DNA of 56,529 bases, filler included, from Candidatus Woesearchaeota archaeon (GCA_047603125.1; 4 parts of 4 records of this genome joined end to end with filler, not necessarily neighbours in it), one strand, 5' to 3'. Shown: positions 13,533 to 47,111, counted from the first letter of the whole stretch. Translations and numbers: made by a program. The notes: a model not told the origin generated them from the letters alone.

Positions 13533-13730
13533 TAGGCTTCATCCAAAAAATAAGAAAAAAGAGCACCTTGCAGCTAGATTAGAAAATTTGGTGATTGTTT
13601 GAAAGCTTCTTTCAAACTTGAGGATGAGAATCCGAAAAGTTGCAGGCAAATTTTCGCATACTTCTCAAAGCGGGACTCTTGAGCCAAGTCTGCGTGCTCT
13701 TTTTTGAAAACAATTATTGGATGAAGCCTA
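13533..13730. repeat. Structured repeat family A, copy 1 (MITE-like, 14-bp terminal inverted repeats)
   Basis: TAGGCTTCATCCAA...TTGGATGAAGCCTA; closely similar to 28221-28377 and 39139-39335. Confidence 0.9.
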
Positions 13731-13753
13731 TGCAATATTTAAAAAAGAATAAG

Positions 13754-13797
13754 AAATTATAATGCCTTGGCGTACATTCAGAATTTCGTATTATAAT
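13754..13797. repeat. Structured repeat family A, internally deleted copy 2
   Basis: AAATTATAATGCCTTGGCGTA..TCAGAATTTCG matches 16442-16476, then jumps to the closing arm TATTATAAT. Confidence 0.8.
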
Positions 13798-13851
13798 CAC
13801 TTCTGTCTAAAAATACAATTTTAAAAACAATAAGAAAAAAAGAACAAGACC

Positions 13852-14349
13852 TTAGTCTTGATTTTGTAAGCCCATTTCTTCGTCAGGGTTCTCCCCTTCT
13901 CGTCGAATAACTTTTACTGCATCTATTTTCACCGTAATTGGAATAGGAACGGCAGCTTCAAGAAGTTCAACAATAACTTCTTCTTTTTGTTTATCGACAC
14001 GAGAAATCTTCACATGCTCTCGTTTGAACGGACCGCTAATAATTTCAGCAATATCACCTTTTTGAATATTAACTTCAGTTTTGGCAATGTCAAACATATG
14101 CTCAATCTCTTGATAGGTGACTGGTTTATCCAAAACTCCGCGTGCATATGGGACTTGGTATACTGATCGCTGTGCTTCTTGAAGTGAGTCAGTCTCTACA
14201 AAAATATACCCTCGCATTCCGTGAGGTCGAAACGCACTAAAAATATTGAGTTTTTTTTTAGCAACATTACTACTTAAAAAGTCAAGGATTTGTTCTTCTC
14301 TATTTGCTGTACATCGTACTGCATAAATTTGGGTTGCTTGTTCTGTCAT
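13852..14349 (-). CDS. spt5: Transcription elongation factor Spt5 (NusG)
   Basis: NGN domain 'IYAVRCTANRE..GYIFVE' and KOW 'GDIAEIISGPFK'; ftsZ-secE-spt5 order. Confidence 0.95.
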   Translation of the reverse strand: MTEQATQIYAVRCTANREEQILDFLSSNVAKKKLNIFSAFRPHGMRGYIFVETDSLQEAQRSVYQVPYARGVLDKPVTYQEIEHMFDIAKTEVNIQKGDIAEIISGPFKREHVKISRVDKQKEEVIVELLEAAVPIPITVKIDAVKVIRREGENPDEEMGLQNQD

Positions 14350-14354
14350 GTCAT

Positions 14355-14528
14355 TCACCTAAATATAAATAGTTCCATTAATACGAATATTAAAAATCCG
14401 ATCGCGCCAATTGCCAACATTCCAATTGCTGCAATTTTTGCAGTGGCGGTGTATTCTTTTTTATTTGGTTTTTTTGTAACCTTTAATACCCGTAAGCATT
14501 GATTGTAAAATGATTTTAATTTTTGCAT
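14355..14528 (-). CDS. secE: Protein translocase SecE/Sec61-gamma
   Basis: 'RVLKVTKKP..EY..AKI..IG...IG.IGF'; conserved position; AGGTGA SD before ATG 14528. Confidence 0.93.
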   Translation of the reverse strand: MQKLKSFYNQCLRVLKVTKKPNKKEYTATAKIAAIGMLAIGAIGFLIFVLMELFIFR

Positions 14529-14543
14529 ATTATTCACCTATGG

Positions 14544-15641
14544 TTAATCAACAAATTCAATTCCAAGTTCTTGCTCGCGAGCATCATCTTTTTTCTCTCG
14601 AGTTGTGGCACCCACAATTTGTGATGATTTGACTCCAGTTACAATGAGCATTACGCGCAATGTTTTTCCTAGGTCTTCACTAATTTGTGCACCCCAGATA
14701 ATTCTTGCTTCTTCATCAAGTTTATCTGAAATAATTTGAACGACTTTTCGAGCTTCTTCTAGTGAGAGATTTTCACTTCCTGAAACATTAATGAGTGCTC
14801 CCGTGGAGCCAGTAATATCAACATCAAGGAGTGGATTGTTCACCGCTTTATCAACAGCTTCAACCGCTCTATTTTCACTGTCACTTTCTCCAACACCAAT
14901 AAGAGCAACGCCTCCATCACCCATGACGGCACGAATATCAGCAAAGTCAAGGTTTACAAGCCCTGCTTTTGTCACAAGTTCTGCCATTCCTTTTACTGAG
15001 CTTGTTAAAATTTCATCTGCTACTTTAAAGGCAGTTTGTATAGGTAAATCCGGTGCGATTTCTAAGAGTTTATCGTTTGGAATAATAATGAGTGTATCTG
15101 CCCATTGTTGAATTTTCTCAATGCCATAAACCGCATTATCATATCGGCGATTTCCTTCCATCTTAAAGGGCATCGTTACAATGGCAATACTAAGCGCTCC
15201 TATTTTTTTTGCGATTTCGGCGACAACTGGTGCAGAACCAGTACCTGTTCCTCCGCCCATTCCGCAAGTAATAAAGACCATGTCTGCTCCTTGCAAAGAT
15301 TCGCGAATTTCTTTTTCACTTTCTTTTGCAGCCTCTTCACCAACTTTTGGAACACTTCCTGCTCCAAGACCATGCGTCGAGTCTTTTCCGATAAGAATTT
15401 TCTTATCTGCGCTGGCATATAAGAGATCTTGGGCATCCGTATTAATAGCAACTGTTTGAGCGCCATGGATTCCGACTTCAGTCATACGATTAATTGTATT
15501 ATTTCCACCACCACCACAGCCGACGACTTTGATAGTTGCACGATGCTGTGCGAGCAAAGATTCGAGCTCAGCGTCAATTTCATGACGGGAATTTTGTGGT
15601 TTTTCGTGTTGTTGCCCTGCAGTCTGAATGAATGTATCCAT
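14544..15641 (-). CDS. ftsZ: Cell division protein FtsZ
   Basis: [28 protein letters not shown] motifs. Confidence 0.98.
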
Positions 15642-15646
15642 GGTTT

Positions 15647-16327
15647 TTACTCCGGTTTTGCCTGTTTTTGATCTTTTTGATCACTTACAGGTTTAGAGAT
15701 GTCTTTCTTTTTAAATTCAATGGATTCTAGCTCAGGGATGAGACCAGTAATCTTTTTTGAAAATTGTTCTTGAAATTCCTCAGGAAGTGGTGCGGGCGTT
15801 TGAATAATAGCCTTTTTTTCCTTTATTGTAACATCAGGAATACCAACAATTGAGTGCAATTTCTCTTTTGTATCAGTTACAAGATCAAGAATTTTCACTT
15901 GATAATTCACTGTTTTTCCAGACAAGGGATGGTTAAAGTCAACCAATGTTCGACCAGCACCCACCGTTTTTACAATACCTGTTTGATTGTCTACTTGAAC
16001 TTGCATTCCTGGCTGTAATTGGATATTTTGCTCTTGAAATTTTTTAGAAGCAATCAATTTGATGTATTTTGCATCTTTTTTTCCAAATGCCTTTTCTGGC
16101 GCAATATCGGTGGAGAATGTTTGATTTGGTTCTTTTCCAATTAATGCCTCGTCAATTCCAACAAGTACTTGTTTTTCTCCAATACAAACGATCATCGGGC
16201 CGTATTTTTGCGTATTGCTTTCTATTTGATGTTTTTTTGCTACTTCACGATCTGTTGTATCAAAAACAAAGTCTTCAAATTTTCCTGTATATTCAATACG
16301 AACGAAATCGCCTTTTTTTAATGCCAT
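15647..16327 (-). CDS. slyD: FKBP-type peptidyl-prolyl isomerase (SlyD-like, archaeal long type)
   Basis: '[15 protein letters not shown]', 'PEKAFG', '[10 protein letters not shown]'. Confidence 0.9.
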
Positions 16328-16441
16328 GTGTATCACTATATGTACTTCTAGGTCGCATCAAGCTTAAATAGAAGTTCTACAGTAGGAGGCTGTCACCTTA
16401 TTTAAAAAGGTTTTGGTGTGGTTTGGAGTTATCAACAATAA

Positions 16442-16541
16442 AAATTATAATGCCTTGGCGTATAATCAGAATTTCGAGGAGTTGCGCACCGGAGAAATTC
16501 GCAAAATGAACCACTGTTCAAAAATCGCCGCATTATAATTT
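16442..16541. repeat. Structured repeat family A, copy 3 (minimal 100-bp form)
   Basis: 12-bp closing stem AAATTATAATGC/GCATTATAATTT, CTT bulge, GGCG/CGCC stem, two internal hairpins. Confidence 0.85.
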
Positions 16542-16649
16542 AGTTTTGTTTTTTTATTTTGGAATAAATGGCTGACTCCAACCCATACAGGTAAATATAG
16601 GCTTTCAAGTTGCAAAAAGCTTTTATAGGCTCATAGAGAACGTTCAGGT

Positions 16650-17228
16650 ATGCACATAACAATAGGCGGTATGCCTGGTTCAGGAAAGGGAACGGTTGCA
16701 AAATTGCTTGCAAAACAGTTAGGATTCACTCACATTTCGATTGGTCAGCTTCGACGAGACCAAGCCAAAAAGCAACAGATGACAATACAGGAATATAACG
16801 AGTGGTCTCTAAAAAATCCAAAAGTCGGTGATGAATACTTTGACAAATTGCAAGCCAAAATGGCTCGTGAACAAGATAATCTGATTTTTGATGGTCGTAT
16901 GTCTTTTTACATGATCAAACCATCGCTTCGTGTCTATTTAGACGTTGATTTAGAGCAGGCAGCAAAACGCATATTTGCAGATGAGAAAAGAAAAGATGCT
17001 GCTGAGTCACCATATGTTTCGGTTCAGGATGCATACACGCAACTTGTGGAGCGAGTGAAAAATGATACATTTCGATATCAAGAACTCTATGGCATTGATG
17101 TGTATAATAAGAAATATTTTGATGTCTACATTGATACCACTGAATTAACACCTGAGCAAGTTGTGCAAAAGATTATTGACAAGTATACAGAGTTTAGCGC
17201 AAAGCATTTAAATGAGAACACAAGGTAG
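16650..17228 (+). CDS. cmk: Cytidylate kinase (archaeal type)
   Basis: 'ITIGGMPGSGKGT' P-loop, 'IFDGR', 'RYQELYGID'. Confidence 0.9.
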   Translation: MHITIGGMPGSGKGTVAKLLAKQLGFTHISIGQLRRDQAKKQQMTIQEYNEWSLKNPKVGDEYFDKLQAKMAREQDNLIFDGRMSFYMIKPSLRVYLDVDLEQAAKRIFADEKRKDAAESPYVSVQDAYTQLVERVKNDTFRYQELYGIDVYNKKYFDVYIDTTELTPEQVVQKIIDKYTEFSAKHLNENTR

Positions 17229-17244
17229 TCATATGGGGGTGGGG

Positions 17245-18768: not shown

Positions 18769-18849
18769 GAATCATTTTTTCTCGACGAGAAAAGCACATC
18801 CATTCTCGAAACGATACATTTAAATATTTGGGCGTTGTACCTATGGTAA

Positions 18850-18915
18850 CAGGTAAAACCAAGTAGACAGTGTACCTTGAGGTGCACGCTTGAGTTCTAT
18901 TTGGTGCTGTTTTTC
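18850..18915 (+). ncRNA. Candidate small structured RNA convergent with the DUF3800 gene
   Basis: TTTAAATA box at 18819-18826; stem ACCAAGTAGA/TCTATTTGGT enclosing GTGTACC-TTGA-GGTGCAC, with both wobbles G.U on +; T-run follows. Boundaries inferred. Confidence 0.45.
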
Positions 18916-18919
18916 ATCA

Positions 18920-19534
18920 TTAAATGGAGTAAATTTCTTGGTCAGGCACAATATCTGCAAATTCTGAATTATTGAGACAAATTTTTTGATATGCTGACCA
19001 CGCAAGAATGTCTGCAAATTGCAAGCCTGACCATGAATGAGAATAGCTGTGGTAAATTTTTACTTTTAATATTGCTGAGCCTTCTCTGAGTTTTTTTTCA
19101 AAATAATTATTGAAGTCGTTTTGTAATATTTGTTTTCCTTTTGATCTATCTATTCGGACTTCAACAACGCCTCCCTGAATATTAATATTTGCTGCTAGTT
19201 TTCCTGCAATGAAATTATATAATTTGTTTTTTTCTTTTTTTAAGTATTTGCTACGTAATTTTTTCTTCTCAAGAAATGCATGTAATACTTTGATATTTGG
19301 AACTTCACTCAACTTTTTTAGCATGTATGTGATTAACTCGTGGCTTGAATTATTTGCTTTAATTTCTTGTGCTTTTCGTAATTCTTTTTTGAATTTATTT
19401 CTTCGCATATTTTTAATTATTCTGTCTAAAGGAGTATAATCTTTTACTAAAAGAGCTGATAGAATAATATATTGCGAACCTCCTTGTTTATCTCCCAAGT
19501 CCCCACTTTCGTCAATAAATAGGCAATATTGCAT
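18920..19534 (-). CDS. DUF3800-family protein (predicted RNase H-like fold)
   Basis: N-terminal 'LFIDESGDLG' and C-terminal 'SHSWSGLQFADILAW' family motifs; ATG 19534. Confidence 0.85.
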   Translation of the reverse strand: MQYCLFIDESGDLGDKQGGSQYIILSALLVKDYTPLDRIIKNMRRNKFKKELRKAQEIKANNSSHELITYMLKKLSEVPNIKVLHAFLEKKKLRSKYLKKEKNKLYNFIAGKLAANINIQGGVVEVRIDRSKGKQILQNDFNNYFEKKLREGSAILKVKIYHSYSHSWSGLQFADILAWSAYQKICLNNSEFADIVPDQEIYSI

Positions 19535-20648: not shown

Positions 20649-20698
20649 AGGACCAAAAAAGATAAACATATTTATGTAAGTTCTGGTTTCCCTTGTTT

Positions 20699-22054: not shown

Positions 22055-22068
22055 GGCTAAAGATTGAT

Positions 22069-25834: not shown

Positions 25835-25934
25835 NNNNNNNNNNNNNNNNNNNNNNNNNNNNNNNNNNNNNNNNNNNNTTAATTAATTAANNNNNNNNNN
25901 NNNNNNNNNNNNNNNNNNNNNNNNNNNNNNNNNN
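25835..25934. other. Artificial contig spacer
   Basis: 44 N + TTAATTAATTAA + 44 N; identical at three positions. Confidence 0.98.
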
Positions 25935-26242
25935 CGAAGTTGAATAAAGCGCTCAGGAGAGCTATGCCCCCCTTGCAACCAACATCGACGGCCATCAATA
26001 TACACATCGTCAACACGAATCATATATGGCTCGTTATTTCGAATAGTAAACACCGTCTTAAACGTATCAACCGAATAATCAGTAATCGCAACTGGTTGTG
26101 AAGACAATGCCGCGCGAGCAGCCTGCTCGCTAATTCCGCCACCAATACCAGGAATCCCACCTAAAGAACCGACGACTATCAGAGCGATAATAATAACAAC
26201 AGCAGTTATTACAAGATACTCAGTAGCAGTTTGCGATTTCAT
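25935..26242 (-). CDS. Class III signal peptide (archaeal pilin-like) protein, truncated by the contig end
   Basis: 'MKSQTATEYLVITAVVIIIALIVV' fits the K-S/Q-x-x-x-E-Y prepilin pattern. Confidence 0.8.
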
Positions 26243-28162: not shown

Positions 28163-28220
28163 TGTTACTTCTCCCCAAAAGCAACGGAAAAAAACCTTAT
28201 TTATATATGTTCACATAATT

Positions 28221-28377
28221 TAGGCTTCATCCAAAAAATAAGAAAAAAAAGCACCTTGCAGTAAAGTCAGAAAATTCAACGATTTATGTAGTTGAATTTT
28301 CGCATAATTCTCAAAGCGGGACTCTTGAGCCAAGTCTGCGTGCTTTTTTTTGAAAAACAATTATTGGATGAAGCCTA
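28221..28377. repeat. Structured repeat family A, copy 4 (MITE-like; lacks the internal module)
   Basis: Same 14-bp TIR as copy 1; flanked on both sides by TAATT. Confidence 0.9.
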
Positions 28378-28421
28378 TAATTTAAAAAAACTACAGAAAA
28401 ATAGAAAGTAAAATAAAAAAA

Positions 28422-35975: not shown

Positions 35976-37602
35976 AAATAATTTCGCATGCGCACACCGG
36001 CATACTCAAACCCCAATTTTCTAATACATCTGGGTGTATTTCCCCAAAAAAAGCAAGTTGCTTGCCCTTATACATAACGCGGGCACATCGGCCTTTTATA
36101 AAACTTTTGTGCTCAAATGAATCAATTTGCACATCGTAGCCAAAAGTCGCAAAAATACTATCAATAAGTTGGCGAATTTGCGTATAAGGAGCCGTATCTG
36201 CACAAAGTGCTATTGCAACATGGAGTTGATTTTTCGAACAAACATCAGTTTTTGCAGGAATAATAACATCCCCAACCTCAAAAATCATTTGAGGATACAC
36301 CACACTTCTATTATAATGAAGCGTCTTTAATAATTCAGGCAAAAGCCATGTGCGCAACATATTGATATTTCGCTCGGCCGTACTTCCAAGTGCAATAAAT
36401 TCAGACGCAACTACGGGCAAATTCATTTTTGTAAACTGATCATCTTTATCTGTTACTCCCAAAGTTTTTACTTCTTGCAAGCCAAAACCGATTAAATGAC
36501 GCGTTATTTGCTCAATGAAATGATTTTGCTTTGTCATTGAACCCTTTGTATAAGAATGTGAATATTGTAACTCTATCGAATTTGCTCCCAGCGCACGCAA
36601 AACATCATCAATTAAATCAACAGCATGCCAAATATCGTAGCGATATGGCAACACATGAATTTGCAACATCTCACCATCAATGACAACTCGATGACCCATT
36701 TTTTCCAATAAATTTGCAGCCTGTTTTGCTGTCAGCGATGTTCCTAAATGCGCATTTATTTTTTGCACGCTTACAGCGTATGATTGTTCTTCAAGCTTTG
36801 GCGTTGCTCTTTTTTGCTTTCCGTCTATTACTGTCACCTGATGGACTTTTCCACCCATATCAATAAATAGACAACTTAACAAAACAAGAATGTGCTCAAG
36901 CACCGGTATATCAAACCCACTAACTTCAATAAAAATTCCCGTCGTTGTTTGATCGACTTTTCCAACGGTGTGTGAATTAATAATTGGAGGCATGGAAAGA
37001 ATTTGCCCGTCTGCATCCGTAAAAAGAGGGAAAACCTTTGCTCCTTCTAGTAAATGTGCATATTTTTTTCCCGCAGGATGTTCTTGCAAAATTTGCAACC
37101 CTGACATTTGTTTTGTCCCTTCGAGAGGCTCAAAAGCAATGTCATTTGGCTTTTTTGCACAAAACGTAATTGGCCACGAAATTTTTTCAAGTGGGTACAC
37201 ACCAATTGCCGCACGTTTTCGTTCTTTTCCAATCGTTGCATGCAATTTCTCTTGCACCCAGATGATGTCTTTAATTGTTTGATCAGTAAAGTTAAGATTT
37301 GTCACAACCGCACAAACTGTTTGCGGACGAACAGCCTTGACTGAAGAATCAATATGGAGTTCATACAATGACGGATTACTCACATACACAGGATTTTTCT
37401 TTTTTTCAAATGAGCGCAAAATTCGAATAATTCCTTGCGTACTTAATGCATCAAGTCGCTCAGGTGTAATATCTATCTTTAATTCATCACCATCCAGATG
37501 ATCAATATCAAAACCAATCTGTGTCAATATATCTTGTAATTGTTTTTCAGACAGCTTTGTTTGCTGTTGAATTGAGCGCAGTGATGTTTCTAAGACTACC
37601 AT
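35968..37602 (-). CDS. pheT: Phenylalanyl-tRNA synthetase beta subunit
   Basis: 'QEKLH..IGKER', 'SMPPIINS', 'R.DIWH..DLIDD', 'GEIHP'. Confidence 0.95.
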   Translation of the reverse strand: MVVLETSLRSIQQQTKLSEKQLQDILTQIGFDIDHLDGDELKIDITPERLDALSTQGIIRILRSFEKKKNPVYVSNPSLYELHIDSSVKAVRPQTVCAVVTNLNFTDQTIKDIIWVQEKLHATIGKERKRAAIGVYPLEKISWPITFCAKKPNDIAFEPLEGTKQMSGLQILQEHPAGKKYAHLLEGAKVFPLFTDADGQILSMPPIINSHTVGKVDQTTTGIFIEVSGFDIPVLEHILVLLSCLFIDMGGKVHQVTVIDGKQKRATPKLEEQSYAVSVQKINAHLGTSLTAKQAANLLEKMGHRVVIDGEMLQIHVLPYRYDIWHAVDLIDDVLRALGANSIELQYSHSYTKGSMTKQNHFIEQITRHLIGFGLQEVKTLGVTDKDDQFTKMNLPVVASEFIALGSTAERNINMLRTWLLPELLKTLHYNRSVVYPQMIFEVGDVIIPAKTDVCSKNQLHVAIALCADTAPYTQIRQLIDSIFATFGYDVQIDSFEHKSFIKGRCARVMYKGKQLAFFGEIHPDVLENWGLSMPVCACEIICD

Positions 37603-39095
37603 GGCGCCACCTTTTTAATTTCTTTATAGGATTTTAACCACTCCAAATCACACTGAGGACCAATAATATCCTTTAATTTATCTTGCTCTAATAACAGCAT
37701 TGCTAATCGTTCTAAACCCAAACCCCAAGCAATCACTGGTTTTTTAATTCCATACGGTTCTAGCGATTCTGGGCGAAAAATTCCAGAGTTAATAAGCTCA
37801 AGCCATTTATTTTTTTCTTTATCAAAATACAATGCTTCAATTGATGGCTCCGTATACGGATTATATGTTGGTTTAAAGCTAATAGTATCAAAACCTAATT
37901 TTGCATAAAATTCTTTTATAATTGCAAGTAAATGTCCTAGTGTCAAATCATCATCCATAACAAAACCCTCAACCTGGTAAAACTCGGGAAGGTGCGTTGC
38001 ATCAATTGCTTCGTTTCGAAACACTTTCCCTATGTAAAAATATTTTGCAGGTGTTTTCACACCAGAAGCCAGCGTTCTATACGTTGTTGCAGTAGTATGC
38101 GTTCGTAGCACAAGTTCTTTTGCAATAGTTTCATTCCAAGGCACACTATACCCTCGATAGCCATCTTTTGCTCCATGTTCATGCACTTGTTTTATTTTTT
38201 TTAGTAGTTCTTTTGACGGTAACTGTCCTTGTTTGTTTAAGTAGAATGTATCTTGGACATCACGCGCAGGATGATCTTGAGGAATCCACATCGAATCCAT
38301 GCACCAAAAGGCAGTTTCAACCCATGGACCCTTCATTTCTGTAAAACCCATCTCTAAAAAGATCTGGCGAACATACTCTATTACTGCAGTCATAGGATGC
38401 ATTCGACCAGGGTGCTTTTTTGGCACAGGGCTTCTCACATCAATCGGACGAACAGTTTGTGATTTGTATGTTTTTTGAACCAGCATCTCGCTTGTCAATG
38501 TATTAATGGTTTTTGTGTTCGTTAATGATTTCAAGGATATTTTTTTTGCTTGCGCAGTAAGTTTTACAGAAGGTTTTGTTTTTGTTTCAACCAGCACTAA
38601 TTGCTTTCTTTTCTTTAATGACTCTAGCTGATCTTTTTGTTCACTTGATAAAGAATCAACCATTGCAGGAAATGTCAAATTAAAAAACGATTGTTCTGAA
38701 ATGTCGATGTCTTTTATTTTAGAAATAATCAATTCCTTGCCCTTTTGCACATCAATTGCACCTTTTTGTTTAAGAATGCCAATGCATGCCCCAATTTCTT
38801 GCATACTAAATCCTTTCTTGAGTAATTGTGATTGTGATTGTGGTTTATCCAGTGCTTTTAATAAGCGAACTTCGGGCAAACCTTGTTTTTTTGCAATCTC
38901 CCCATTTTCATCCAAGCGCACAACTTGATATTTCATATACGCTAAATCAATGAGTTTTTTATTGGAAAGCCATTGGAGCGCACGAGAAATTTGCACTTCA
39001 TCTAAGGAAATTTTCTGCGAATCAAAAGTTTTATGCTCGAGAAGATAACTCAGCACTACCACCTCATATTCATGCAATTGCGAAACGTCAACCAT
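37596..39095 (-). CDS. pheS: Phenylalanyl-tRNA synthetase alpha subunit
   Basis: 'QDHPARDVQDTF', 'LRTHTT', 'FRNEAIDATHLPEFYQ', 'YTEPS', 'WGLGLER'; probable start ATG 39095 (MVDVSQL), since the longer track ORF runs through repeat copy 5. Confidence 0.95.
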   Translation of the reverse strand: MVDVSQLHEYEVVVLSYLLEHKTFDSQKISLDEVQISRALQWLSNKKLIDLAYMKYQVVRLDENGEIAKKQGLPEVRLLKALDKPQSQSQLLKKGFSMQEIGACIGILKQKGAIDVQKGKELIISKIKDIDISEQSFFNLTFPAMVDSLSSEQKDQLESLKKRKQLVLVETKTKPSVKLTAQAKKISLKSLTNTKTINTLTSEMLVQKTYKSQTVRPIDVRSPVPKKHPGRMHPMTAVIEYVRQIFLEMGFTEMKGPWVETAFWCMDSMWIPQDHPARDVQDTFYLNKQGQLPSKELLKKIKQVHEHGAKDGYRGYSVPWNETIAKELVLRTHTTATTYRTLASGVKTPAKYFYIGKVFRNEAIDATHLPEFYQVEGFVMDDDLTLGHLLAIIKEFYAKLGFDTISFKPTYNPYTEPSIEALYFDKEKNKWLELINSGIFRPESLEPYGIKKPVIAWGLGLERLAMLLLEQDKLKDIIGPQCDLEWLKSYKEIKKVAPW

Positions 39096-39138
39096 GCGTT
39101 TTTGTAATATGAAATGCTTTTTAAACGTTTGGGTATGA

Positions 39139-39335
39139 TAAGTTTCATCTAAAAAATAAGAAAAAAGAGCACCTTGCAGCCAGATCAGAAAATTTGGCGA
39201 TTGTTTGAAAGCTTCTTTCAAACTTGAGGATGATAATCCGAAAAGATGCAGCCAAATTTTCGCTTTATTCTCAAAGCGGGACTCTTGAGCTGAATCTGCG
39301 TGCTCTTTTGAAAGATAATGTTTTGATAGAGCCGG
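39139..39335. repeat. Structured repeat family A, copy 5 (decayed TIRs)
   Basis: Colinear with 13533-13730 including the internal module; outer arms have diverged. Confidence 0.9.
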
Positions 39336-39353
39336 CATTAAACAAGTAATATT

Positions 39354-41123: not shown

Positions 41124-43590
41124 GTATATCTAAAAGTGTTTGTTGTTTGAGTTTTGCAAACTTTTTTTCTAATTTTTCTACAATGATTTTATCATTCATC
41201 GCATCATCTGCTTCCAATTTTAATTGAACTTTTTTTGCATTTTCAACTACGCGAGCAGGAACTCCAGCAAGGGATGCCACATGCAAGCCATAACTTTTAT
41301 CTGTTCCCCCACGCTCAATTTTTCGCAAAAACGTAATGTGGTCATCTTTTTCTTCAACAGCGACATTATAATTTACCACACCTTGTAACGAGTCAAGTTT
41401 TGTTAAAACATGATAATGTGTTGAGAAGAGTGTTTTTGATTTTTGATTTGTTGCCAATTCTTGAGCAACCGCCCAGGCAATTGCAACACCATCATAGGTA
41501 CTTGTCCCCGAACCAATTTCATCAAGTATAATAAAACTTTTTTTTGTAGCATTTGATAAAATATATGCTGTTTGAGTCATCTCAACCATAAATGTCGATT
41601 GTCCTCTTGCTAAATTATCATGGGAACCTACACGAGTAAATAATTTATCTACAATACCAATTGTCGCTTTATTTGCAGGAACAAAACAACCCATTTGTGC
41701 CAGAATAATTGTGAGCGCGCATTGACGCATAAAAGTGGACTTTCCAGCCATATTCGGACCAGTTATAATCATCATGTGTTCTTGTTCATCCAAGCGTAAA
41801 TCATTGGGTATGAACTGGTGTTCTTGCAATTCAATTACAGGATGACGAGATTGCTCTAAATGTAGTGCATAATCGTTTGTAATAGAAGGTTTTGTATAAT
41901 TATTATCCAAACTCACTCTTGCAAATGAACTCAAACAATCAATTTGCGCAATTTGTTTTGAAATATCTTGTATAATAGTAATATTTTTTTGAATAAATGA
42001 GCAAAGATCTAAAAATAGTGTGTATTCTAAATCCCGTATTTTCTCTTCAGCACTTAATATTTTCACCTCAAGTTCTTTTAATTCATCCGTTATAAAACGC
42101 TCCGCATTCACCGTACTTTGTTTTCGCTGGTAATGTGAAGGAACTGAGTCTGAGAATCGCTTTGTTATTTCAATAAAATAACCAAAGACTTTGTTGTATT
42201 TTACTTTCAATGTTGAAATCTTTGTTTTTTCAATTTCACTTTTTTCTAAATTTAAAAGGTACTTTTGTGCATTTTCTTTAATGTCCCAATACGAATCTAA
42301 TTGGCTATGAAAACCTCGCTTAATAAAATTCCCCTCTCGAACACTCAATGGACACTCATCTTTAAGCGTTTTATCAATTTGCTCGATTATTTTATGATTG
42401 TCTGCAAAATCAATGAGTTTAGAAATATATTGACTGTGAATTTGATCATCTGAGAGTAATTGTTGTATTTGAGCAAGCAATGTTAAAGAGTCTTTGAGTG
42501 TCACCAAATCACGAGGGTTTGCATTCCCATACCCGATTTTGCTTGCAATCCGCTCAATGTCAGACATTTGAGATAATATATCCCTTGTATCTTCAAGAGT
42601 TATTGTTTGAAAAGAAAGTTGCTCGACTGCATTTTGACGCTCCAAAATCGTATGTGTTTGTGCAAGTGGTCGCACAATCCATTGACGCAGTAATCGCGCA
42701 CCCATATTTGTTTTTGTTTTGTCAATAACTGACAATAAGCTTCCTTGTTTATCTTGATCATAAGCTGTCTTTAACAGTTCAAGATTGCGAATTGTTGTCT
42801 CATCAAGTTGCATTGTTTGCAGCGGTGTATCGGATGCATAACGCAGGTAGGAAAGCTGAGTTTTTTGTGTTTGATTTAAGTACCATAACAACGCCCCTGC
42901 ACTACACACAGCTAAATCATATTGGTGTAATTGCAATTCAACAAGTGTTTGTGAAAATTGTGATTCCAAACGCTCCTTTGCACGCTCATATATAAATTGT
43001 TCAAGTCCGACAGTGTTACAAGCAATCTTTTGCGTTTGCGCATAGTTTTCGAAAAGCTGTTTTTGACTGCTACAAACTAATAATTCACTCGGTGAAATTC
43101 TTGCAAGCTCATCAAAAAAATCTTGACTTGACTTGCATTCCTTACTAGAAAATTCTCCTGTAGAAATATCACAATAGCTCAAACCAAATTGGCCATTATC
43201 CTCAAACACACACGCAATAAAATTATTTGTTTTATCATCTAAAAGCGCATTTTCAACCAATGTCCCCGCCGTGACAACCCGAGTCACTGCTCGCTTGACA
43301 ATTCCTTTTGCTTGCTTTGGGTCTTCTATTTGCTCACAAATAGCAACTTTTCTGCCAGTCGCAACTAAACCTTTTAGATATTTTTCTAAAGCATGATAGG
43401 GTATTCCTGCAAGTGGCGCCTTTGCTTGATCTTTGCCCCGGGACGTTAAGGCAATTCCCAGCGTTTTTGAGACAAAAATTGCATCATCGTAGAAACATTC
43501 GTAAAAATCACCCATACGAAATAAAATAAGTGCATCAGGATATTGCTCCTTTACTTCCATAAACTGTCTCATTGCTGGTGTCAGCTTCAT
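41107..43590 (-). CDS. mutS: DNA mismatch repair protein MutS (MutS1)
   Basis: FRMGDFYE, TGPNMAGKST, STFMVEM, DEIG, THYH, SYGL. Confidence 0.97.
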   Translation of the reverse strand: MKLTPAMRQFMEVKEQYPDALILFRMGDFYECFYDDAIFVSKTLGIALTSRGKDQAKAPLAGIPYHALEKYLKGLVATGRKVAICEQIEDPKQAKGIVKRAVTRVVTAGTLVENALLDDKTNNFIACVFEDNGQFGLSYCDISTGEFSSKECKSSQDFFDELARISPSELLVCSSQKQLFENYAQTQKIACNTVGLEQFIYERAKERLESQFSQTLVELQLHQYDLAVCSAGALLWYLNQTQKTQLSYLRYASDTPLQTMQLDETTIRNLELLKTAYDQDKQGSLLSVIDKTKTNMGARLLRQWIVRPLAQTHTILERQNAVEQLSFQTITLEDTRDILSQMSDIERIASKIGYGNANPRDLVTLKDSLTLLAQIQQLLSDDQIHSQYISKLIDFADNHKIIEQIDKTLKDECPLSVREGNFIKRGFHSQLDSYWDIKENAQKYLLNLEKSEIEKTKISTLKVKYNKVFGYFIEITKRFSDSVPSHYQRKQSTVNAERFITDELKELEVKILSAEEKIRDLEYTLFLDLCSFIQKNITIIQDISKQIAQIDCLSSFARVSLDNNYTKPSITNDYALHLEQSRHPVIELQEHQFIPNDLRLDEQEHMMIITGPNMAGKSTFMRQCALTIILAQMGCFVPANKATIGIVDKLFTRVGSHDNLARGQSTFMVEMTQTAYILSNATKKSFIILDEIGSGTSTYDGVAIAWAVAQELATNQKSKTLFSTHYHVLTKLDSLQGVVNYNVAVEEKDDHITFLRKIERGGTDKSYGLHVASLAGVPARVVENAKKVQLKLEADDAMNDKIIVEKLEKKFAKLKQQTLLDIHGNNT

Positions 43591-43710
43591 CTCATCCCCC
43601 TAGAAAAAGGTCAATTTTTGAGTATTTATATACTTTATGGGGATTTATAAATGAGAAATCAGCTAAAAAAGAGCGCAAAGTATTTAATCACCTACCTCTA
43701 TAAAAAGTGT

Positions 43711-44148
43711 ATGCGAGTCGCAATTATTCCTGAGCAAACACTTGATACCATACAAGAATTTATACAAAACCCACCAAAGAACATTTCTGATTACAGCATC
43801 GTTTATGAACCATTGGCAAAACAACATAGTGTTTTTTTTGACGAACCCTTTTTTACAAATATGCTAGACATTATAAAAAAAGGCGCATGTTTGCAAGAGT
43901 ATGTAGTTCTCTGTCAAGATCTCAAAAATGACTGGCTCAGACCATTTCTCAAAGAGCTTAATCAAGAAAGCAAGAAGCAATCTTCTCAACTAGAACTCTT
44001 TGCAGAACAACCACAAACAAAACATACACAACTATCTTCTCTTTCAAGAGAAATTATTGAAAATCTGCAAATTACAGTAACATATCACATACAAATCCTT
44101 GAAAAACTCATCACTATTTATCAACATGGCGCAAACACACGTTACTAA
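43711..44148 (+). CDS. Hypothetical protein
   Basis: ORF with TATTTAA motif upstream of ATG 43711. Confidence 0.6.
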   Translation: MRVAIIPEQTLDTIQEFIQNPPKNISDYSIVYEPLAKQHSVFFDEPFFTNMLDIIKKGACLQEYVVLCQDLKNDWLRPFLKELNQESKKQSSQLELFAEQPQTKHTQLSSLSREIIENLQITVTYHIQILEKLITIYQHGANTRY

Positions 44149-44497
44149 GCAAAAACCTGTACGATTTATCTTCTATGGCAATCTAAAGCACAAAAAACGC
44201 TTCTCTTCGTTTCTTCCACAAGGAACATTTCAAAAAGTCAAAGTCTATGGCTTACAGATGCATAAATTACGAACATGTCCGGCAGTCGTGAAAAAAAACA
44301 ACTATATTTATGCACAACTCTGGACATTTGTGCTTTCTCCTTGGCAAAAACGACTCTTGTTATTCATACTTGACCTTATAGAAGGTGTCTACATTACAAG
44401 ATTTACAAGACAAACAATGATGATTCAAAATCAAAAAGCCTACATCTACATATACAATTGGTCTGTTCAAAATAAACCAATTATTCATGAATGGTAG
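44126..44497 (+). CDS. Gamma-glutamylcyclotransferase (AIG2-like) family protein, divergent
   Basis: 'FIFYGNLK', 'CPAVV', 'LDLIEG', 'AYIYIYN' match the GGCT pattern. Confidence 0.65.
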   Translation: MAQTHVTKQKPVRFIFYGNLKHKKRFSSFLPQGTFQKVKVYGLQMHKLRTCPAVVKKNNYIYAQLWTFVLSPWQKRLLLFILDLIEGVYITRFTRQTMMIQNQKAYIYIYNWSVQNKPIIHEW

Positions 44498-44539
44498 ATT
44501 GAATATAAAAAAGAGCACGTGTCAAGAAACAAAAATAAC

Positions 44540-44666
44540 AAAAGTTCGCTGCTCGAAGCTAATTGAAAAACACAAGTTTTTCAAACCCAGAAAACTAGGA
44601 CGTTTTCTAGGTACCCCCGCCCCGAAGGGACGGGGTATTACGCTTCTCACCTAATCGCGAACTTTT
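44540..44666. repeat. Multibranched palindromic element containing an IS200/IS605-end-like hairpin
   Basis: AAAAGTTCGC/GCGAACTTTT outer stem; internal hairpins TGAAAAAC/GTTTTTCA, AGAAAAC/GTTTTCT and TACCCCCGCCCCGAAGGGACGGGGTA. Confidence 0.6.
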
Positions 44667-44668
44667 GA

Positions 44669-44721
44669 ATTGAGAGTTTGCGGACTGAAGTCCGGAGTTT
44701 TATACCCGCGAAACTCTCAAT
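44669..44721. repeat. REP-like palindrome
   Basis: ATTGAGAGTTT/AAACTCTCAAT arms enclosing CGGAC-TGAA-GTCCG. Confidence 0.55.
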
Positions 44722-44724
44722 AAA

Positions 44725-44864
44725 TGCTACTGCACCTTGGCGCGAAATCAGAAGAAGCACCAATTGTTTGAGAGCCTCTTTCAAACTTGAGGATGAAAAT
44801 CCGAAAATATGCAGGTGCTTCGGCGCAAAATTGACAACCATCCCAAAATCGCCGCGCAGTAGCA
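44725..44864. repeat. Structured repeat family A, copy 6 (GGCG subtype with internal module)
   Basis: TGCTACTGCAC-CTT-GGCG ... CAAAAT-CGCC-GCGCAGTAGCA; shares the ~52-bp module with copies 1 and 5. Confidence 0.85.
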
Positions 44865-44948
44865 ATAATGACAATATACTTTTTCAAATAATTCCGGACA
44901 CGATCGAAAAAAATCAGATTTATAAACTAACCATTTGTTCACAATTCT

Positions 44949-46007
44949 ATGTATCAACCACAATTCATTCATCACAAAGATATCAAACTATCAGAAAAAA
45001 CACGCAATCTTCTCAAACAGGCAAATGAAATATATCTGAAAAATTTTTCAAATACCATTTGGTATGGAAGATGTATTTTTTTTTCGTGGTTTTGTAAAAA
45101 AGCAACCTGTACATTTTGCTATCGAAGTACGCTCAAACATAAAATTGCTCATCAAAAGAATCACCATCGCTCCATCGGCTCCATGCTCAGCGAGGCTCTT
45201 CTTTGCAAGGAATTAGGCTGGCGAATTGAATTTCTCACAGGCGGCTATCAAGAAGATAATGTTTTTAACGATATTGTTTTGTATGCAAAACTTATAACAA
45301 AAGTATATGGTGAAAAAATTTGGGTAAATATTGGATGGATGACCAAAGAACAAGTCGAACAACTTCGCCCTTATATTAAAGGAATTTGCGCATCCATTGA
45401 AACACCAACACCACATTTACACAAACAAGTTTGCCCAGATAAACCAATTAAGCCATATGAGAATATGTTTGCAAACGCCTCAGACGTAAAAAAAAGTGCA
45501 GCTTTTATTGTTGGTCTTGGAGATACTGATGAAGATTTCCAATACTGGGTTGATTTTATCCAAAAACAAAAACTTGACAGAATCACTGTATACGCACTCA
45601 AACCAATTAAAGGGGGAGCATTCACACAAGGTCCAACAAGTGATCAGTATTTGCAATGGTTGGCAAAACTTCGCATTGCGTTTCCCAAATTAGAAATTAT
45701 TGGAGGAACAAATCTTCGCAGAAGTGAAGAAGTTGGGTATATGATTCGGGCGGGTGTGAATGCAATCACAAAATTTCCTGCAACAAAACAATTTGCAACA
45801 AAAAAAGCTCACAAAATAACTGACCTCATTACAGAGCAAGACAGAATATTTACGAGCAATCTCACAACGCTTCCCCCTATCAACTGGGATGAAAAAATAG
45901 ACCAACTCGATATTGAACCAGAATATAAAAAACAACTCAAAGAAACATTTCCCGTATACCTCAAACAATTACAGAACCCTCAAGATATCGACTCCTGTAT
46001 GGAATAA
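44949..46007 (+). CDS. Biotin-synthase-like radical SAM protein
   Basis: 'SWFCKKATCTFC' (Cx4Cx2C), 'LTGG', 'IVGLGDT', 'AGVNAITKFP'. Confidence 0.85.
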   Translation: MYQPQFIHHKDIKLSEKTRNLLKQANEIYLKNFSNTIWYGRCIFFSWFCKKATCTFCYRSTLKHKIAHQKNHHRSIGSMLSEALLCKELGWRIEFLTGGYQEDNVFNDIVLYAKLITKVYGEKIWVNIGWMTKEQVEQLRPYIKGICASIETPTPHLHKQVCPDKPIKPYENMFANASDVKKSAAFIVGLGDTDEDFQYWVDFIQKQKLDRITVYALKPIKGGAFTQGPTSDQYLQWLAKLRIAFPKLEIIGGTNLRRSEEVGYMIRAGVNAITKFPATKQFATKKAHKITDLITEQDRIFTSNLTTLPPINWDEKIDQLDIEPEYKKQLKETFPVYLKQLQNPQDIDSCME

Positions 46008-46429
46008 TGACTTTTATAATCCCATTCTTTGAAAATCATCCCGACTATGACGCACAAAAAAGTAGCGATATCTACACACTATATTCTCGCTATTTTCATC
46101 AAAGAATGAAAAGAACGACGCCATTTATGGATTCTCGTATTGCCGTTTTAAATAGTTCACAGAACCGAGACGATGTCTACTTTATTGCAAGCCCATCTTT
46201 TTTTCAAAAATTTAAACGTCCCGCTCTCAAAGTTGGATCAATACATTATGTCTCTCAAAATACGTATTTTCAATTAGACGTACAAGCAAACCCTGCCACG
46301 CCAAGGGCTGTGCATGAAGATACAACCTATGTTTTTTACGAAAGACTTTTATTACCCACTTACACACTTTTGGAGAGAAACCAAAAAAACGATGATAAAA
46401 AACAACATTCTTCAACTACCCGAATTTGA
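46007..46429 (+). CDS. Hypothetical protein
   Basis: ATG overlaps the upstream stop (TAATG). Confidence 0.55.
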   Translation: MTFIIPFFENHPDYDAQKSSDIYTLYSRYFHQRMKRTTPFMDSRIAVLNSSQNRDDVYFIASPSFFQKFKRPALKVGSIHYVSQNTYFQLDVQANPATPRAVHEDTTYVFYERLLLPTYTLLERNQKNDDKKQHSSTTRI

Positions 46430-46982
46430 AAAAGATACCTATTATGTACTTTTTCTTGAATCTGAAACATCACTTCCCGTTCGATTCATCACACATACGT
46501 GGATTGTCACCGTTTACAATGGACAAACTGATAGATGGGATATTTTACATAAAAAAAATCTCTCAAAAGATAGCTGGCAACATCTTCACAAAAACTTCAT
46601 ACCCGCATTTCAAGGACTACCAAAGTATTATTTTGGCAATAAAAAACATTGGCCTGCAAAAATCATCGGCATTGTGAAAGGGAAAAAAAATTCAAAAGCG
46701 CACAAACTCTGCTTACAAATACAAGATGCACAAAAATCATACCCATTTATTGATAAATACAAATTTGTACCAGGACCGAATTGCAACTCGTTTACACAAT
46801 GGTTTTTAGATAAAAATAATATCAAATCGTTTCGTATTTCTAAAACATCTCTTGGAAGAGAATTCTGGGAGCTTCAACGGTTTAAAGAAAACGCACACAA
46901 AAAAATTCTCAATTATTGGATTAAAGAACAAAAAGAGACTACTTCACAGAAAAACAAGAGTGTTTTTGGAAAACAAAAATAG
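46392..46982 (+). CDS. DUF3750-like protein (His/Asn-Cys motifs; permuted papain-like by inference)
   Basis: 'THTWIV....RWD' and 'YKFVPGPNCNSFTQW'. Confidence 0.7.
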   Translation: MIKNNILQLPEFEKDTYYVLFLESETSLPVRFITHTWIVTVYNGQTDRWDILHKKNLSKDSWQHLHKNFIPAFQGLPKYYFGNKKHWPAKIIGIVKGKKNSKAHKLCLQIQDAQKSYPFIDKYKFVPGPNCNSFTQWFLDKNNIKSFRISKTSLGREFWELQRFKENAHKKILNYWIKEQKETTSQKNKSVFGKQK

Positions 46983-46983
46983 C

Positions 46984-47111
46984 TGCTATTGCACCTTGGC
47001 GCCAATAATAACGTATCACCAAATTTTTTATTTGTACCAGAAATTGAGTTGATTCTTGCAGACTCAATTTTGCAAAAAAGACAACCGTCCCAAAATCGCC
47101 GTGCAATAGCA
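46984..47111. repeat. Structured repeat family A, copy 7
   Basis: TGCTATTGCAC-CTT-GGCG ... GACAACCGTC-CCAAAAT-CGCC-GTGCAATAGCA; arms nearly identical to copy 6. Confidence 0.85.

Follow-up and report, generated by a model that had tools for sequence, protein, structure and literature searches.

The folded elements dispersed through this DNA are very probably the cores of transposons, either MITEs or insertion sequences (IS). We tentatively propose that they are the cores of MITEs and of ISH3/IS4-like IS of Woesearchaeota, and that the core may serve the transposon as a folded antisense RNA. The window, meaning the whole stretch of 56,529 nucleotides analysed (Candidatus Woesearchaeota archaeon, GCA_047603125.1), consists of four contigs joined by N spacers, so the shared + orientation of copies across 25834/25950 is uninformative. 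Six full copies and one deleted copy were located where the preliminary description had placed them, and a covariance model (R1) matched all six full copies (E 2.8e-20 to 3.6e-08). A dispersed family of independent RNA genes is not supported: every well-preserved copy lies inside a transposon with inverted repeats and duplications. ARAGORN returned a tRNA-Leu as its sole match in the window. The features are listed below.

13512..13521, -: TATA-like box, a putative promoter by position, belonging to the adjacent minus-strand gene (ORF 11664-13490); it lies 13 nt beyond where the MITE 13535..13728 starts on the left
13535..13728, +: MITE, subfamily A, long form; core 13559-13701; left arm with its inverted end 13535-13558, right arm with its end 13702-13728; 9-bp duplication 13526-13534 TATGCATTA / 13729-13737 TATGCAATA, 8/9 match
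13597..13638, +: 42-nt two-hairpin cassette at the tip of P3, made up of a 9-bp hairpin, TTGA, a 4-bp hairpin with a GNRA loop, and GAAAA; same cassette also at 39203-39244 and 44766-44807
13754..13800, +: internally deleted subfamily-C copy, in which P1, CTT bulge, P2, linker and the start of P3 are retained and fused to the P1 3' strand
16446..16537, +: core, subfamily C, 92 nt, model score 87.5 bits; outer ends uncertain (candidates near 16425 and 16579, 8/12 complementary, no clear duplication)
28223..28375, +: MITE, subfamily A, short form; core 28247-28347; 9-bp duplication 28214-28222 CATAATTTA / 28376-28384 TATAATTTA, 8/9 match
39141..39333, +: MITE, subfamily A, long form, decayed ends; core 39165-39307; flanking 9-mers agree at 6/9; ORF 37596-39338, a long one, is probably called too far and so runs into this MITE
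44728..44861, +: core, subfamily E, long form; another hairpin repeat (44655-44718) in place of the left arm
46987..47108, +: core, E-like variant, model score 41.8 bits; P2-P3 linker longer by about 30 nt; ORF 46314-46982 takes its final codons from the left arm

The insert that had been described in P3 is indeed present, but as a discrete 42-nt two-hairpin cassette (13597-13638, 39203-39244, 44766-44807) and not as variable sequence.

Transposon ends, duplications and insertion sites

The elements show several features by which MITEs are recognized: they are small (about 150-195 bp), non-coding and multicopy, they have terminal inverted repeats, with ends decayed or unclear in some copies (16446, 39141, 46987), and they are flanked by target-site duplications of 9, 8 or 3 bp. 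The inverted repeats read GGCTTCATCC.../...GGATGAAGCC in subfamily A and TAGTTAGCGG.../...CGTCGACTA in subfamily B; subfamilies D and F have terminal ends of their own. Duplications were perfect in 18/18 subfamily-B copies (3 bp) and in all three anchored copies of subfamily F (8 bp), while the 9-bp duplication of subfamily D was perfect in two of three anchored copies and had one mismatch in the third. Twelve of about 40 subfamily-A copies could be anchored at both ends, and their duplications were perfect in five, had one mismatch in two and at least three mismatches in the other five; both window copies of this subfamily with intact ends match at 8/9. Copies in another family (G037) share the same TAGTTAGCGAC ends and have 3-bp duplications.

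The core starts 22-24 nt from the left inverted end, and the elements mostly lie about 10-14 bp from a TATA-like box. In subfamily B a TATA-like 8-mer begins 8-13 nt from an end in 15/18 copies, at either end about equally often, and no motif complementary to a core loop was found at the target sites of this subfamily beyond the TATA-like box itself. Among 103 copies the gene context was divergent for 31, tandem for 47 and convergent for 3, and orientation relative to the neighbouring genes in tandem contexts was unbiased (21 sense, 26 antisense). On visual inspection subfamily A had seemed strongly biased to face the promoter of the adjacent gene, a reading set aside when called ORFs gave 12 versus 6 (tandem), which is not significant. 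No empty-site alleles were seen at the seven window copies in 7 lake-water DNA runs, whose contigs break at the repeats.

The 1.116-Mb MAG contains at least 107 model matches (150 of 658 candidates scored, with subfamily D absent from the model seed) in at least nine subfamilies, and the elements make up roughly 1.5-2% of it. The core is also present in other families of the same archaeal order, where unpaired loops and linkers are more conserved than stems, and a single genome can hold many copies with different stems. A scan of IMG/VR gave 4 pattern matches, none fitting the model at that place. Inverted pairs of cores were considered as IS ends and rejected, as those in G078, L139, L132 and L148 flank ordinary genes (encoding an IVP protein, Kae1, an SDR and ribosomal P1), not transposases.

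A conserved and covarying fold

The fold that had been described, running through P1, CTT bulge, P2, linker, P3, linker, P4 and linker, was borne out. The CTT bulge is invariant and placed between C and G, P2 is always exactly 4 bp, and the linkers are, in order, an A-rich one ending in ATCA before the long P3, a GC-led one before the small P4, and a last one ending in AAT or AGT. In an alignment of 26 short-form copies (A4, 691 cells), 88.6% of cells were paired versus 62.4% after shuffling, with 0/500 shuffles reaching the observed value; pairing dropped to 32-46% when the partners were slid. Both sides change in 24/27 pairs, which agrees with one conserved, covarying three-way junction with conserved unpaired bases. 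Copies from other genomes gave 93.1% of cells paired versus 61.5% shuffled and 412 double-change cells versus 115. With so many different stems elsewhere paired to this degree, the earlier suggestion of selection on a folded single strand, and not just of recent copying, is upheld: stems covary and loops stay fixed. Across 40 subfamily-A copies, only a few linker positions vary, together with compensated pairs atop P3, and we count this pattern as a sign of long-term selection. A pseudoknot between GATT in the P3 loop and AATC in the linkers was dropped, since variants on either side are uncompensated.

The core matches no named Rfam family, as anticipated: there were 0 matches at gathering score across the whole window, and three stretches searched at E up to 10 gave nothing relevant and no ribozyme. 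Inspection of the conserved motifs by eye revealed no hammerhead core, K-turn, C/D boxes or T-loop, and literature searches found no description of the same three-way-junction core.

The strand that carries the fold

Structural marks, namely tandem G.A pairs and GNRA loops, occur on the CTT strand only, which is a new finding. Mismatches in P1-P3 were G.A or A.G in 29 cases and C.T or T.C in 0 in the home genome, and 47 versus 2 in other genomes. At the base of P3, tandem GGAG/CGAC substitutes for two A-T pairs in 16/48, the cassette loops are GNRA in 35/37, and the CTT strand has A-rich unpaired linkers. We consider it likely that the fold is selected on this strand. Wobble pairs give no strand call, as had been noted (G.T 40 versus A.C 30; as G.U versus A.C, 15 versus 15 in other genomes and 32 versus 22 in the home genome), and neither does folding energy, both strands folding about equally well in 13 examples. 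That G.U is as rare as A.C is unusual for a long-selected RNA, and folded DNA would account for it equally well or better. Tandem G.A pairs and loops of GNRA type are stable in DNA too.

Full insertion sequences that carry the core

Two genomes of the same family have the core at the 3' end of the transposase gene of a full ISH3/IS4-like IS, which it overlaps in antisense. The full element in L159 (= G313) has 15-nt perfect inverted ends 1240 nt apart and a 390-aa ORF with a DDE_Tnp_1 match (E 2.8e-15) and ISH3 as best NCBIfam match (E 5e-31); its core (+, 2994-3093) is within the ORF (-, 2979-4151). L192 is a second full element with 54% identity and the same layout. In both, the CTT strand runs antisense to the transposase gene over about the last 35-40 codons. 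The left arm of subfamily I matches the end of the L159 IS, and the IS in L159/L191 shares left end and core with this subfamily.

Like ISH3 and IS4 elements, the L159/L191 element has a single PF01609 ORF and short perfect inverted ends in about 1.27 kb, and its best family model is ISH3, matched over profile positions 30-295 of 298. We filed it as ISH3/IS4-like because its score for NF033541 (ISH3), 107.9 bits, is far below the cut-off of 225 and the next best models are IS4. It differs from ISH3 in that the L159 ORF extends about 90 residues beyond the family model, through the core. ISH3 duplications are 4-5 bp; those of the MITE subfamilies here are 3, 8 and 9 bp, and none was visible at the two full copies.

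A DDE transposase accompanies the core in two related genomes, as part of a full IS. In the MAG there is no PF01609 or PF13359 match, and no intact transposase was found; its transposase traces are P0001-like fragments at C58 and a core-encoded tail at C42. We found no autonomous partner for subfamilies A, B, C, D, E and F. Two full core-bearing elements were found in all, and none in 25 genomes with more distant transposase homologues; G078 has three DDE_Tnp_1 genes with no core nearby, and a metagenome scan for P0001 relatives gave 117 pattern matches and 0 confirmed. The suggested role as substrate of an HUH or tyrosine recombinase does not fit, as elements of that kind have neither inverted ends nor duplications, both of which are present here; the sole Y1 gene, which is the only PF01797 match in the MAG, is a 56-aa remnant with the HUH part alone.

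Possible roles of the core

An antisense-RNA mechanism is a possible, if doubtful, account of this layout. The CTT strand would be transcribed inward, from a neighbouring host TATA box or from the left end, and the transcript would fold into a closed, stable RNA. Once folded, the RNA might base-pair with the transposase mRNA at its 3' end, or the transposition machinery might bind it; MITEs might keep the core by descent from such elements or through a need in cis. The antisense RNA RNA-OUT of IS10 has a comparable layout to that of the core opposite the transposase gene, both being compact, stem-rich and encoded near one IS end. According to the accessible part of a study of Sulfolobus solfataricus (PMC3674436), most cis-antisense RNAs there are opposite transposase genes. 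The core differs from IS antisense RNAs in overlapping the 3' end of the gene and not the 5' end, in having no own promoter that we could see (none was found inside the left arm), and in persisting in MITEs without a transposase gene, for which an antisense regulator gives no reason. Because orientation relative to neighbouring genes is unbiased, one fixed outside promoter cannot serve all copies. An RNA library (X8), of unstranded contigs that give no strand, ends or level and in which DNA carry-over is possible, contained a small share (0.10) of sampled words, and stretches it leaves uncovered are uninformative. Its contigs include element sequence from three copies, among them a 502-nt contig that spans a whole C-type copy, and they cross the core and bulge uncut and unspliced, although contigs drop rare forms.

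It is unlikely that the core is instead a single-stranded DNA site, the CTT strand folding as DNA (for example, when unwound at replication) to be bound by transposase or a host factor near the left end. Transposition, or the choice of targets next to TATA-like boxes, would then depend on the core in cis. Such a site would suit the finding that all nine subfamilies, whose ends are unrelated and whose duplications measure 9, 8 or 3 bp, have a complete core and one target habit. The distance of only 22-24 nt to the left inverted end, wobble pairs not favoured over A.C, and G.A tandems and GNRA-type loops compatible with DNA hairpins point the same way. Functional imperfect hairpins of one strand with extrahelical bases are likewise found in IS200/IS605 ends, REP/RAYT and integron attC, but these are without the inverted ends and duplications that the elements here have. 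We know of no DDE transposon that uses a folded subterminal single strand, which counts against such a site, as do the A-rich linkers and the three-way junction with conserved unpaired bases, which are typical of RNA.

A role as terminator, insulator or transcript stabiliser is distinctly unlikely. The fold and T-runs would stop or stabilise read-through, making promoter-side insertions harmless or useful in an 88%-coding genome, and selection would act via host tolerance. Copies are intergenic, 47/103 of them tandem; the left arms, A-rich on the CTT strand, put T4-T6 runs immediately behind P1 on the opposite strand (subfamilies A-E), and in subfamily A a T6 follows P1 on the CTT strand as well. 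Archaeal termination, however, needs oligo-T and not a three-way junction with conserved loops. The best T-runs are on the strand without the structural marks, CTT-strand T-runs are absent from subfamilies B, F and I, and the 502-nt contig reads through a whole copy. Bacterial MITEs that act as terminators or RNase sites are known (from the part of PMC10969869 available to us), in favour of such a role.

That the core has no function of its own, its pairing arising by arm-against-arm correction of hairpin or cruciform DNA in young copies of few recent masters, seems improbable. Nearly identical subfamily-B copies, the balance of G.T and A.C mismatches and the invariance of most columns within subfamily A would all be expected; loops and linkers better conserved than stems between families of the order, a single genome holding many copies whose stems differ, and strand-asymmetric G.A (47 versus 2) and GNRA would not.

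There is a slim prospect that the core is a nucleic-acid cofactor, a folded RNA or DNA of the same strand at the element's end, and the required binding partner of the DDE transposase. This would explain why every chassis, unrelated as their ends are, inserts at a distance of about one helical turn from a TATA-like box.

A self-cleaving ribozyme, or another free-standing structured RNA hitch-hiking in transposons, is very improbable. Unpaired bases that stay fixed in a three-way junction of exchangeable stems would suit one, and the GNRA loop could dock, but there was no Rfam ribozyme match even at E up to 10 and no hammerhead core by eye in junction or cassette motifs; where ends are preserved, no copy was seen outside a transposon. 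The uncut RNA-library contigs argue weakly in the same direction, being contigs.

Scarcely credible, and rejected, is a BHB or BHL substrate of the tRNA-splicing endonuclease on the AAG strand, whose interior would be excised and circularised: that strand does read as half a BHB (helix, 4-bp helix, 3-nt bulge, long outer helix closing), with a constant 4-bp P2 and a constant 3-nt bulge, and the polarity of a true BHB in the MAG (tRNA at C32:5178, bulges 3' of the 4-bp helix, both strands) fits this strand alone, but a second 3-nt bulge and an inner helix are both lacking, a multiloop with a 6-nt strand takes up the 5' side, the structural marks are on the opposite (CTT) strand, RNA-library contigs cross the bulge unspliced with no spliced or circular form seen among them, and the one endonuclease gene in the MAG has a 173-aa frame, the size of the homotetramer type, which needs a strict BHB.

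Implications and relation to known MITEs

Genomes of Woesearchaeota and other DPANN are tiny and gene-dense, yet roughly 1.5-2% of this MAG consists of these elements. If the transposon needs the core, this would be a rare DDE element dependent on a folded single strand, which could account for insertions being directed to a set position upstream of the archaeal core promoter; were the core a transposase cofactor, it would be an archaeal counterpart to the recent RNA-dependent transposons of other IS families. If the core serves the host through termination or insulation, a streamlined genome would be tolerating about one insertion per 10 kb. The covariance model offers a marker separating these repeats from true ncRNA genes in DPANN annotation, and the TATA-proximal insertion sites a free promoter map in an uncultured lineage.

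Prokaryotic MITEs with folded bodies include Correia/NEMIS of Neisseria, ERIC, RUP/BOX of pneumococcus and SM1-SM4 of Sulfolobus. The elements here resemble them, as far as the part of PMC10969869 consulted describes such MITEs, in being short, non-coding, multicopy and intergenic, with inverted repeats, duplications and stable predicted folds. Unlike known MITEs, they have one covarying core common to chassis with unrelated ends and 9-, 8- and 3-bp duplications, a core kept across families of an archaeal order, strand-specific G.A/GNRA marks and a fixed spacing to TATA-like boxes. Their density, roughly 100 per Mb, compares with 105 MITEs per Mb given for a Woesearchaea genome in the accessible portion of PMC11602168.

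A family of three-way-junction elements in one archaeal genome

The window consists of four contigs of a 70-contig, 1.116-Mb metagenome-assembled genome (MAG G000) pasted together with N spacers, so its parts stand in arbitrary order and relative orientation. Contig C51 (window 1-25834) is followed by C53, C63 and C64, with N runs around the TTAATTAATTAA spacer at 25835-25949, 50726-50840 and 53652-53766. All six full copies of the core (13533, 16442, 28221, 39139, 44725, 46984) and the deleted copy (13754) claimed in the preliminary description were recovered in place and aligned with an invariant C-CTT-G; repeat finding within the window alone already connects them (repeat families D2-D9, D14 and D17). 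That description had recognised no named RNA family, and the Rfam comparison agreed: the whole window gave 0 matches at gathering scores, and three stretches compared at E up to 10 gave nothing relevant.

A search of the MAG for the pattern "stem, CTT, 4-bp stem ... complementary 3' side" returned 114 matches of 85-150 nt, about 110 of them clear family members. These form at least nine subfamilies, named by P1-P2.

Subfamilies of the core in the MAG (P1-P2; copies)
A: AAGAGCAC-GCAG; about 40
B: CATAACTC-GGCG; 18
C: TATAATGC-GGCG; about 18
D: AATATTAC-GATG; 8
E: TACTGCAC-GGCG; about 5
F: ACTATT[TG]C-GGTG; 5
G, H and I: 2 each

A covariance model, R1, was seeded with 26 short-form copies (subfamily D absent). 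With 150 of 658 candidates scored, it gave at least 107 MAG matches at E up to 0.001, and element density is about one per 10 kb. Two "empty" cores (G000:C11:162-190 and C55:11392-11420) consist of P1, CTT bulge and P2 joined straight to P2' and P1', the interior between the two linker AATC repeats being gone.

The fold covaries within and beyond the genome

The claim that the copies share one covarying fold was borne out: 88.6% of 691 cells were paired in the 26 seed copies compared to 62.4% in shuffles, a level reached by 0 of 500 shuffles, and pairing dropped to 32-46% when partners were slid by 1-3 columns. Both-side changes occurred in 24 of 27 pairs. P2, for which covariation had been claimed specifically, was paired in 100% of seed cells, with four pair types at its inner positions. 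Copies in other genomes, being independent of this MAG, provide the stronger evidence: among 48 distinct sequences, in an alignment that was fitted to the model and leans towards it, 93.1% of 1268 cells were paired (61.5% shuffled), with both-side changes in 412 cells (115 shuffled). This set was found by a pattern fixing CCTTG, ATCA and GATTNATGCA, such that conservation of those letters is by construction. Four genomes found by the model alone keep the unpaired motifs of the core, namely the CTT bulge, the linker ending A(A/T)CA, the P3 loop GATT(C/T)ATGCA, CG(C/T)AA after P3 and AAAT before P2'.

Within the P3 loop, copies of subfamilies A, B, D, E, G and H either carry a 42-nt two-hairpin cassette between GATT and YATGCAG or lack it precisely, and the cassette sequence is near-identical across subfamilies with differing stems.

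Locations of the 42-nt cassette
Window 13597-13638
Window 39203-39244
Window 44766-44807
Loci L004, L009, L011, L018 and L020 (fetched loci)

At the same P3-loop point, subfamily F has a two-hairpin cassette of another kind, 52 nt long, and subfamily I has a similar cassette within P4. The 42-nt pattern could reflect a mobile mini-insert, gene conversion or recurrent precise loss.

The cores lie within small non-coding transposons

Inspection of flanks placed the cores within transposons. Subfamily A elements have GGCTTCATCC.../...GGATGAAGCC ends and 9-bp duplications, matching at 8 of 9 positions in two window copies (13526-13534 with 13729-13737; 28214-28222 with 28376-28384). Subfamily D has ends unlike those of A, with 9-bp duplications, and subfamily F has 8-bp duplications. 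Subfamily B has TAG...CTA ends, with 3-bp duplications that are perfect in all 18 copies; copies with the same TAGTTAGCGAC ends and 3-bp duplications also occur in genome G037, which belongs to another family. The 12 of about 40 subfamily A copies anchored by end pattern showed 5 perfect duplications, 2 with one mismatch and 5 worse; A is the older, more decayed subfamily. With cores inside elements that have inverted ends and duplications, these elements are therefore MITEs. It had been suggested earlier, as one of several possibilities, that they are single-strand substrates of an HUH or tyrosine recombinase; the HUH reading is rejected, duplications of 3, 8 and 9 bp being present. Unlike known MITEs, one covarying three-way junction here spans chassis with different ends and duplication lengths, and the strand-specific marks and fixed spacing to TATA-like boxes are also unusual.

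Several other features were seen in passing. A 56-aa remnant of an IS200/IS605-type Y1 transposase, with the HUH part kept and the tyrosine part gone, lies on the minus strand at G000:C25:38117-38290 (L221:1483-1653). A 64-nt hairpin repeat (window 44655-44718; arms TTGAGAGTTTGCGG / CCGCGAAACTCTCAA), found also before G000:C21 2370, C55 3298 and C45 299, takes the place of the left arm in copies of three subfamilies, its end always just before the extended P1. MITE sequence supplies first or last codons of two window ORFs: the start of 37596-39338 is probably over-extended into a MITE, and 46314-46982 ends inside a MITE arm.

A full insertion sequence carries the core antisense to its transposase gene

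A Pfam scan of 117 ORFs of at least 170 aa from 37 related loci identified one transposase, in locus L159 (DDE_Tnp_1, E 2.8e-15).

Features of the L159 element
L159:2979-4151 (-), transposase ORF, 390 aa
L159:2956-2970 and 4211-4225, perfect 15-nt inverted repeats flanking the ORF
L159:2994-3093, core, CTT strand = +, 23 nt from the left end

Judged by its sequence, the element is ISH3/IS4-like: the best NCBIfam model was ISH3, with a score of 107.9 bits, which is under the family cut-off of 225, and IS4 models came next. The core falls within approximately the final 35-40 codons of this minus-strand ORF; its CTT strand is thus antisense to the gene for the transposase. The left arm and core of subfamily I match this IS end, and a TTTATAAA box lies 13-16 nt outside the end in all three (the L159 IS and two subfamily I copies).

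Of 400 other genomes of the order covered by a protein search, 27 hold transposase homologues, among them the unpublished G448. Among the 30 homologue loci listed, an R1 core stood beside only the two closest transposase genes, L191, which is 100% identical and represents the L159 element itself, and L192, at 54% identity and with two in-frame TGA. Both come from this MAG's family and show the antisense layout. The core is a module carried by transposons, and its fold is very probably under selection on the strand that runs antisense to the transposase gene.

Profile and protein searches found no intact transposase of the L159 kind in this MAG. Its completeness is 100% by marker genes, and because it is in 70 contigs, insertion sequences may be unassembled. 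R1 also finds two copies in contig C42, which has no transposase gene. Inverted core pairs elsewhere were considered as IS ends and rejected, with ordinary genes lying between them, and no core accompanied the three DDE genes of genome G078.

Structural marks single out the CTT strand

Folding energies compared for both strands gave no decision, and wobble pairs, as had been stated previously, do not settle the strand (G.T 40 versus A.C 30 over all helices in this MAG; 15 versus 15 in P1-P3 of other genomes). Three features do mark the CTT strand: purine-purine mismatches, GNRA loops and A-rich unpaired linkers. In P1-P3, G.A plus A.G mismatches numbered 29 versus 0 for C.T plus T.C in this MAG, and 47 versus 2 in other genomes. 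The majority belong to a tandem GGAG/CGAC, found in 16 of 48 sequences in place of two A-T pairs at the P3 base, and the neighbouring pairs on both sides covary normally. Of 37 copies of the 42-nt cassette, 35 have a GNRA loop on the small hairpin (GAAA 13, GAGA 12, GGGA 6, GGAA 3, GTGA 1; the others GATA 2), variation being confined to positions 2 and 3. On the opposite strand, the equivalents of these marks are tandem pyrimidine mismatches and UYNC loops.

Wobble pairs are scarcer than is usual in an RNA under long selection, and DNA is likewise stabilised by G.A tandems and GNRA-type loops; RNA and single-stranded DNA therefore both remain candidates. That the core works as a folded-DNA cis site, read on the marked strand, is a reading we consider unlikely.

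Copies border gene starts and TATA-like boxes

Genomic context of 103 copies, scored against simple ORF calls
Between divergent genes: 31
Between genes in tandem: 47 (21 one way round, 26 the other)
Between convergent genes: 3
Within a called ORF: 3
At contig ends: 19

Given 31 divergent and 47 tandem contexts versus 3 convergent ones, nearly every copy borders a gene start. No orientation bias relative to neighbouring genes was found in the tandem contexts (21 versus 26). A terminator or insulator role for the core appears doubtful. In 15 of 18 copies of the young subfamily B, a TATA-like 8-mer begins 8-13 nt from one end, and the two ends are used about equally often. Two B elements are inserted 3-4 nt from the A-rich left arm of A elements (G000:C29:6470-6712 and C16:68-352), which suggests that the A/T-rich box itself is the feature recognised, the A-rich arm serving as a TATA-like landmark. 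In the window, the copy at 13535 is 13 nt away from the TATA-like box (13512-13521) of the gene starting at 13490.

Distribution and public reads

R1 matched 4 of 150 other genomes of the order and 2 of 150 other genomes in a class-wide sample, both of the same order, with 28 candidates per genome scored under strict filters. A pattern scan of one genome per species gave at least 104 stretches; 40 of the 80 loci fetched from these carry 50 model matches, all in MAGs titled Woesearchaeota, Nanoarchaeota, Methanosarcinales or Methanomicrobia, and the remaining loci, among the matches listed, are chance matches in bacteria. The Methanosarcinales and Methanomicrobia titles are perhaps mislabelled. 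An IMG/VR scan for the core found none. A woesearchaeal genome with 105 MITEs per Mb has been reported, and the available portions of that report make no mention of a shared fold (PMC11602168). Our literature search found no description of the core; the supplementary MITE lists of PMC11602168 may contain these sequences. This work adds the assignment of the strand, the antisense placement seen in two full elements and the rejection of the HUH and bulge-helix-bulge (BHB) readings.

The population is present, as contigs, in seven lake-water DNA runs and one metatranscriptome. Across the seven DNA runs no contig joins across an empty site at the copies; contigs stop at repeats. Element sequence from three copies is represented in the RNA library, one C-type copy being spanned in full by a 502-nt contig; these contigs are unstranded, lack transcript ends and may include DNA carry-over.

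Possible working of the core

We tentatively propose, as the most probable of several readings, that the core is an inward-made antisense RNA of the transposon. A TATA box about 10-14 bp outside the end would set a start site just inside the inverted repeat, and an inward-reading RNA would follow; in subfamily A, the A-run before P1 and T6 after P1' would yield a closed RNA of about 150-190 nt. Such an RNA might target the transposase mRNA at its 3' end, or the transposition machinery might bind it. In Sulfolobus, RNAs opposite transposase genes are reported to be the commonest cis-antisense class (PMC3674436).

Across 40 subfamily A copies, P1, the bulge, P2, lower P3 and P4 are mostly invariant columns, while a few linker positions and top P3 pairs differ in up to 18 copies, the changes at the top of P3 being compensated. 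This pattern does not fit neutral decay of one burst; it is consistent with several master lineages that diverged long ago, are under structural constraint and each have few recent copies. Of the further readings, a core with no function of its own is improbable and a ribozyme very improbable.

Least credible is a BHB substrate of the archaeal tRNA-splicing endonuclease. The AAG strand of the core does have the polarity of such a site, which was checked on the true intron of tRNA C32:5178 (helix CTTG/CAAG, bulges AAA and CAA, both 3' of the helix, on both strands). However, the core has no second bulge and no inner helix, its structural marks lie on the CTT rather than the AAG strand, RNA-library contigs traverse the bulge unspliced, and the genome has one endonuclease gene, whose 173-aa frame matches the strict homotetramer type in size; we therefore rejected this reading.

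Three tRNA genes merit a remark. For the intron-bearing tRNA at G000:C32:5178-5307, which ARAGORN gives as Ala(tgc), the long variable arm and BHB geometry favour Ser(UGA) instead, its intron being at the canonical 37/38 position. The only tRNA that ARAGORN called in the window, tRNA-Leu at 47196-47281, is followed about 50 nt behind by a second, diverged copy of its 3' end (within 47282-47360; GTTTCAAACCCCGCCCTTCGTA versus GGTTCGAACCCCGTCCTTCGCA), which resembles a scar left by an element that integrated at this tRNA gene. Archaeal tRNA-Trp introns house a C/D-box guide RNA, and the expected boxes, GATGAG and GATGAT, are present in the 50-nt tRNA-Trp intron at G000:C23:534-657.
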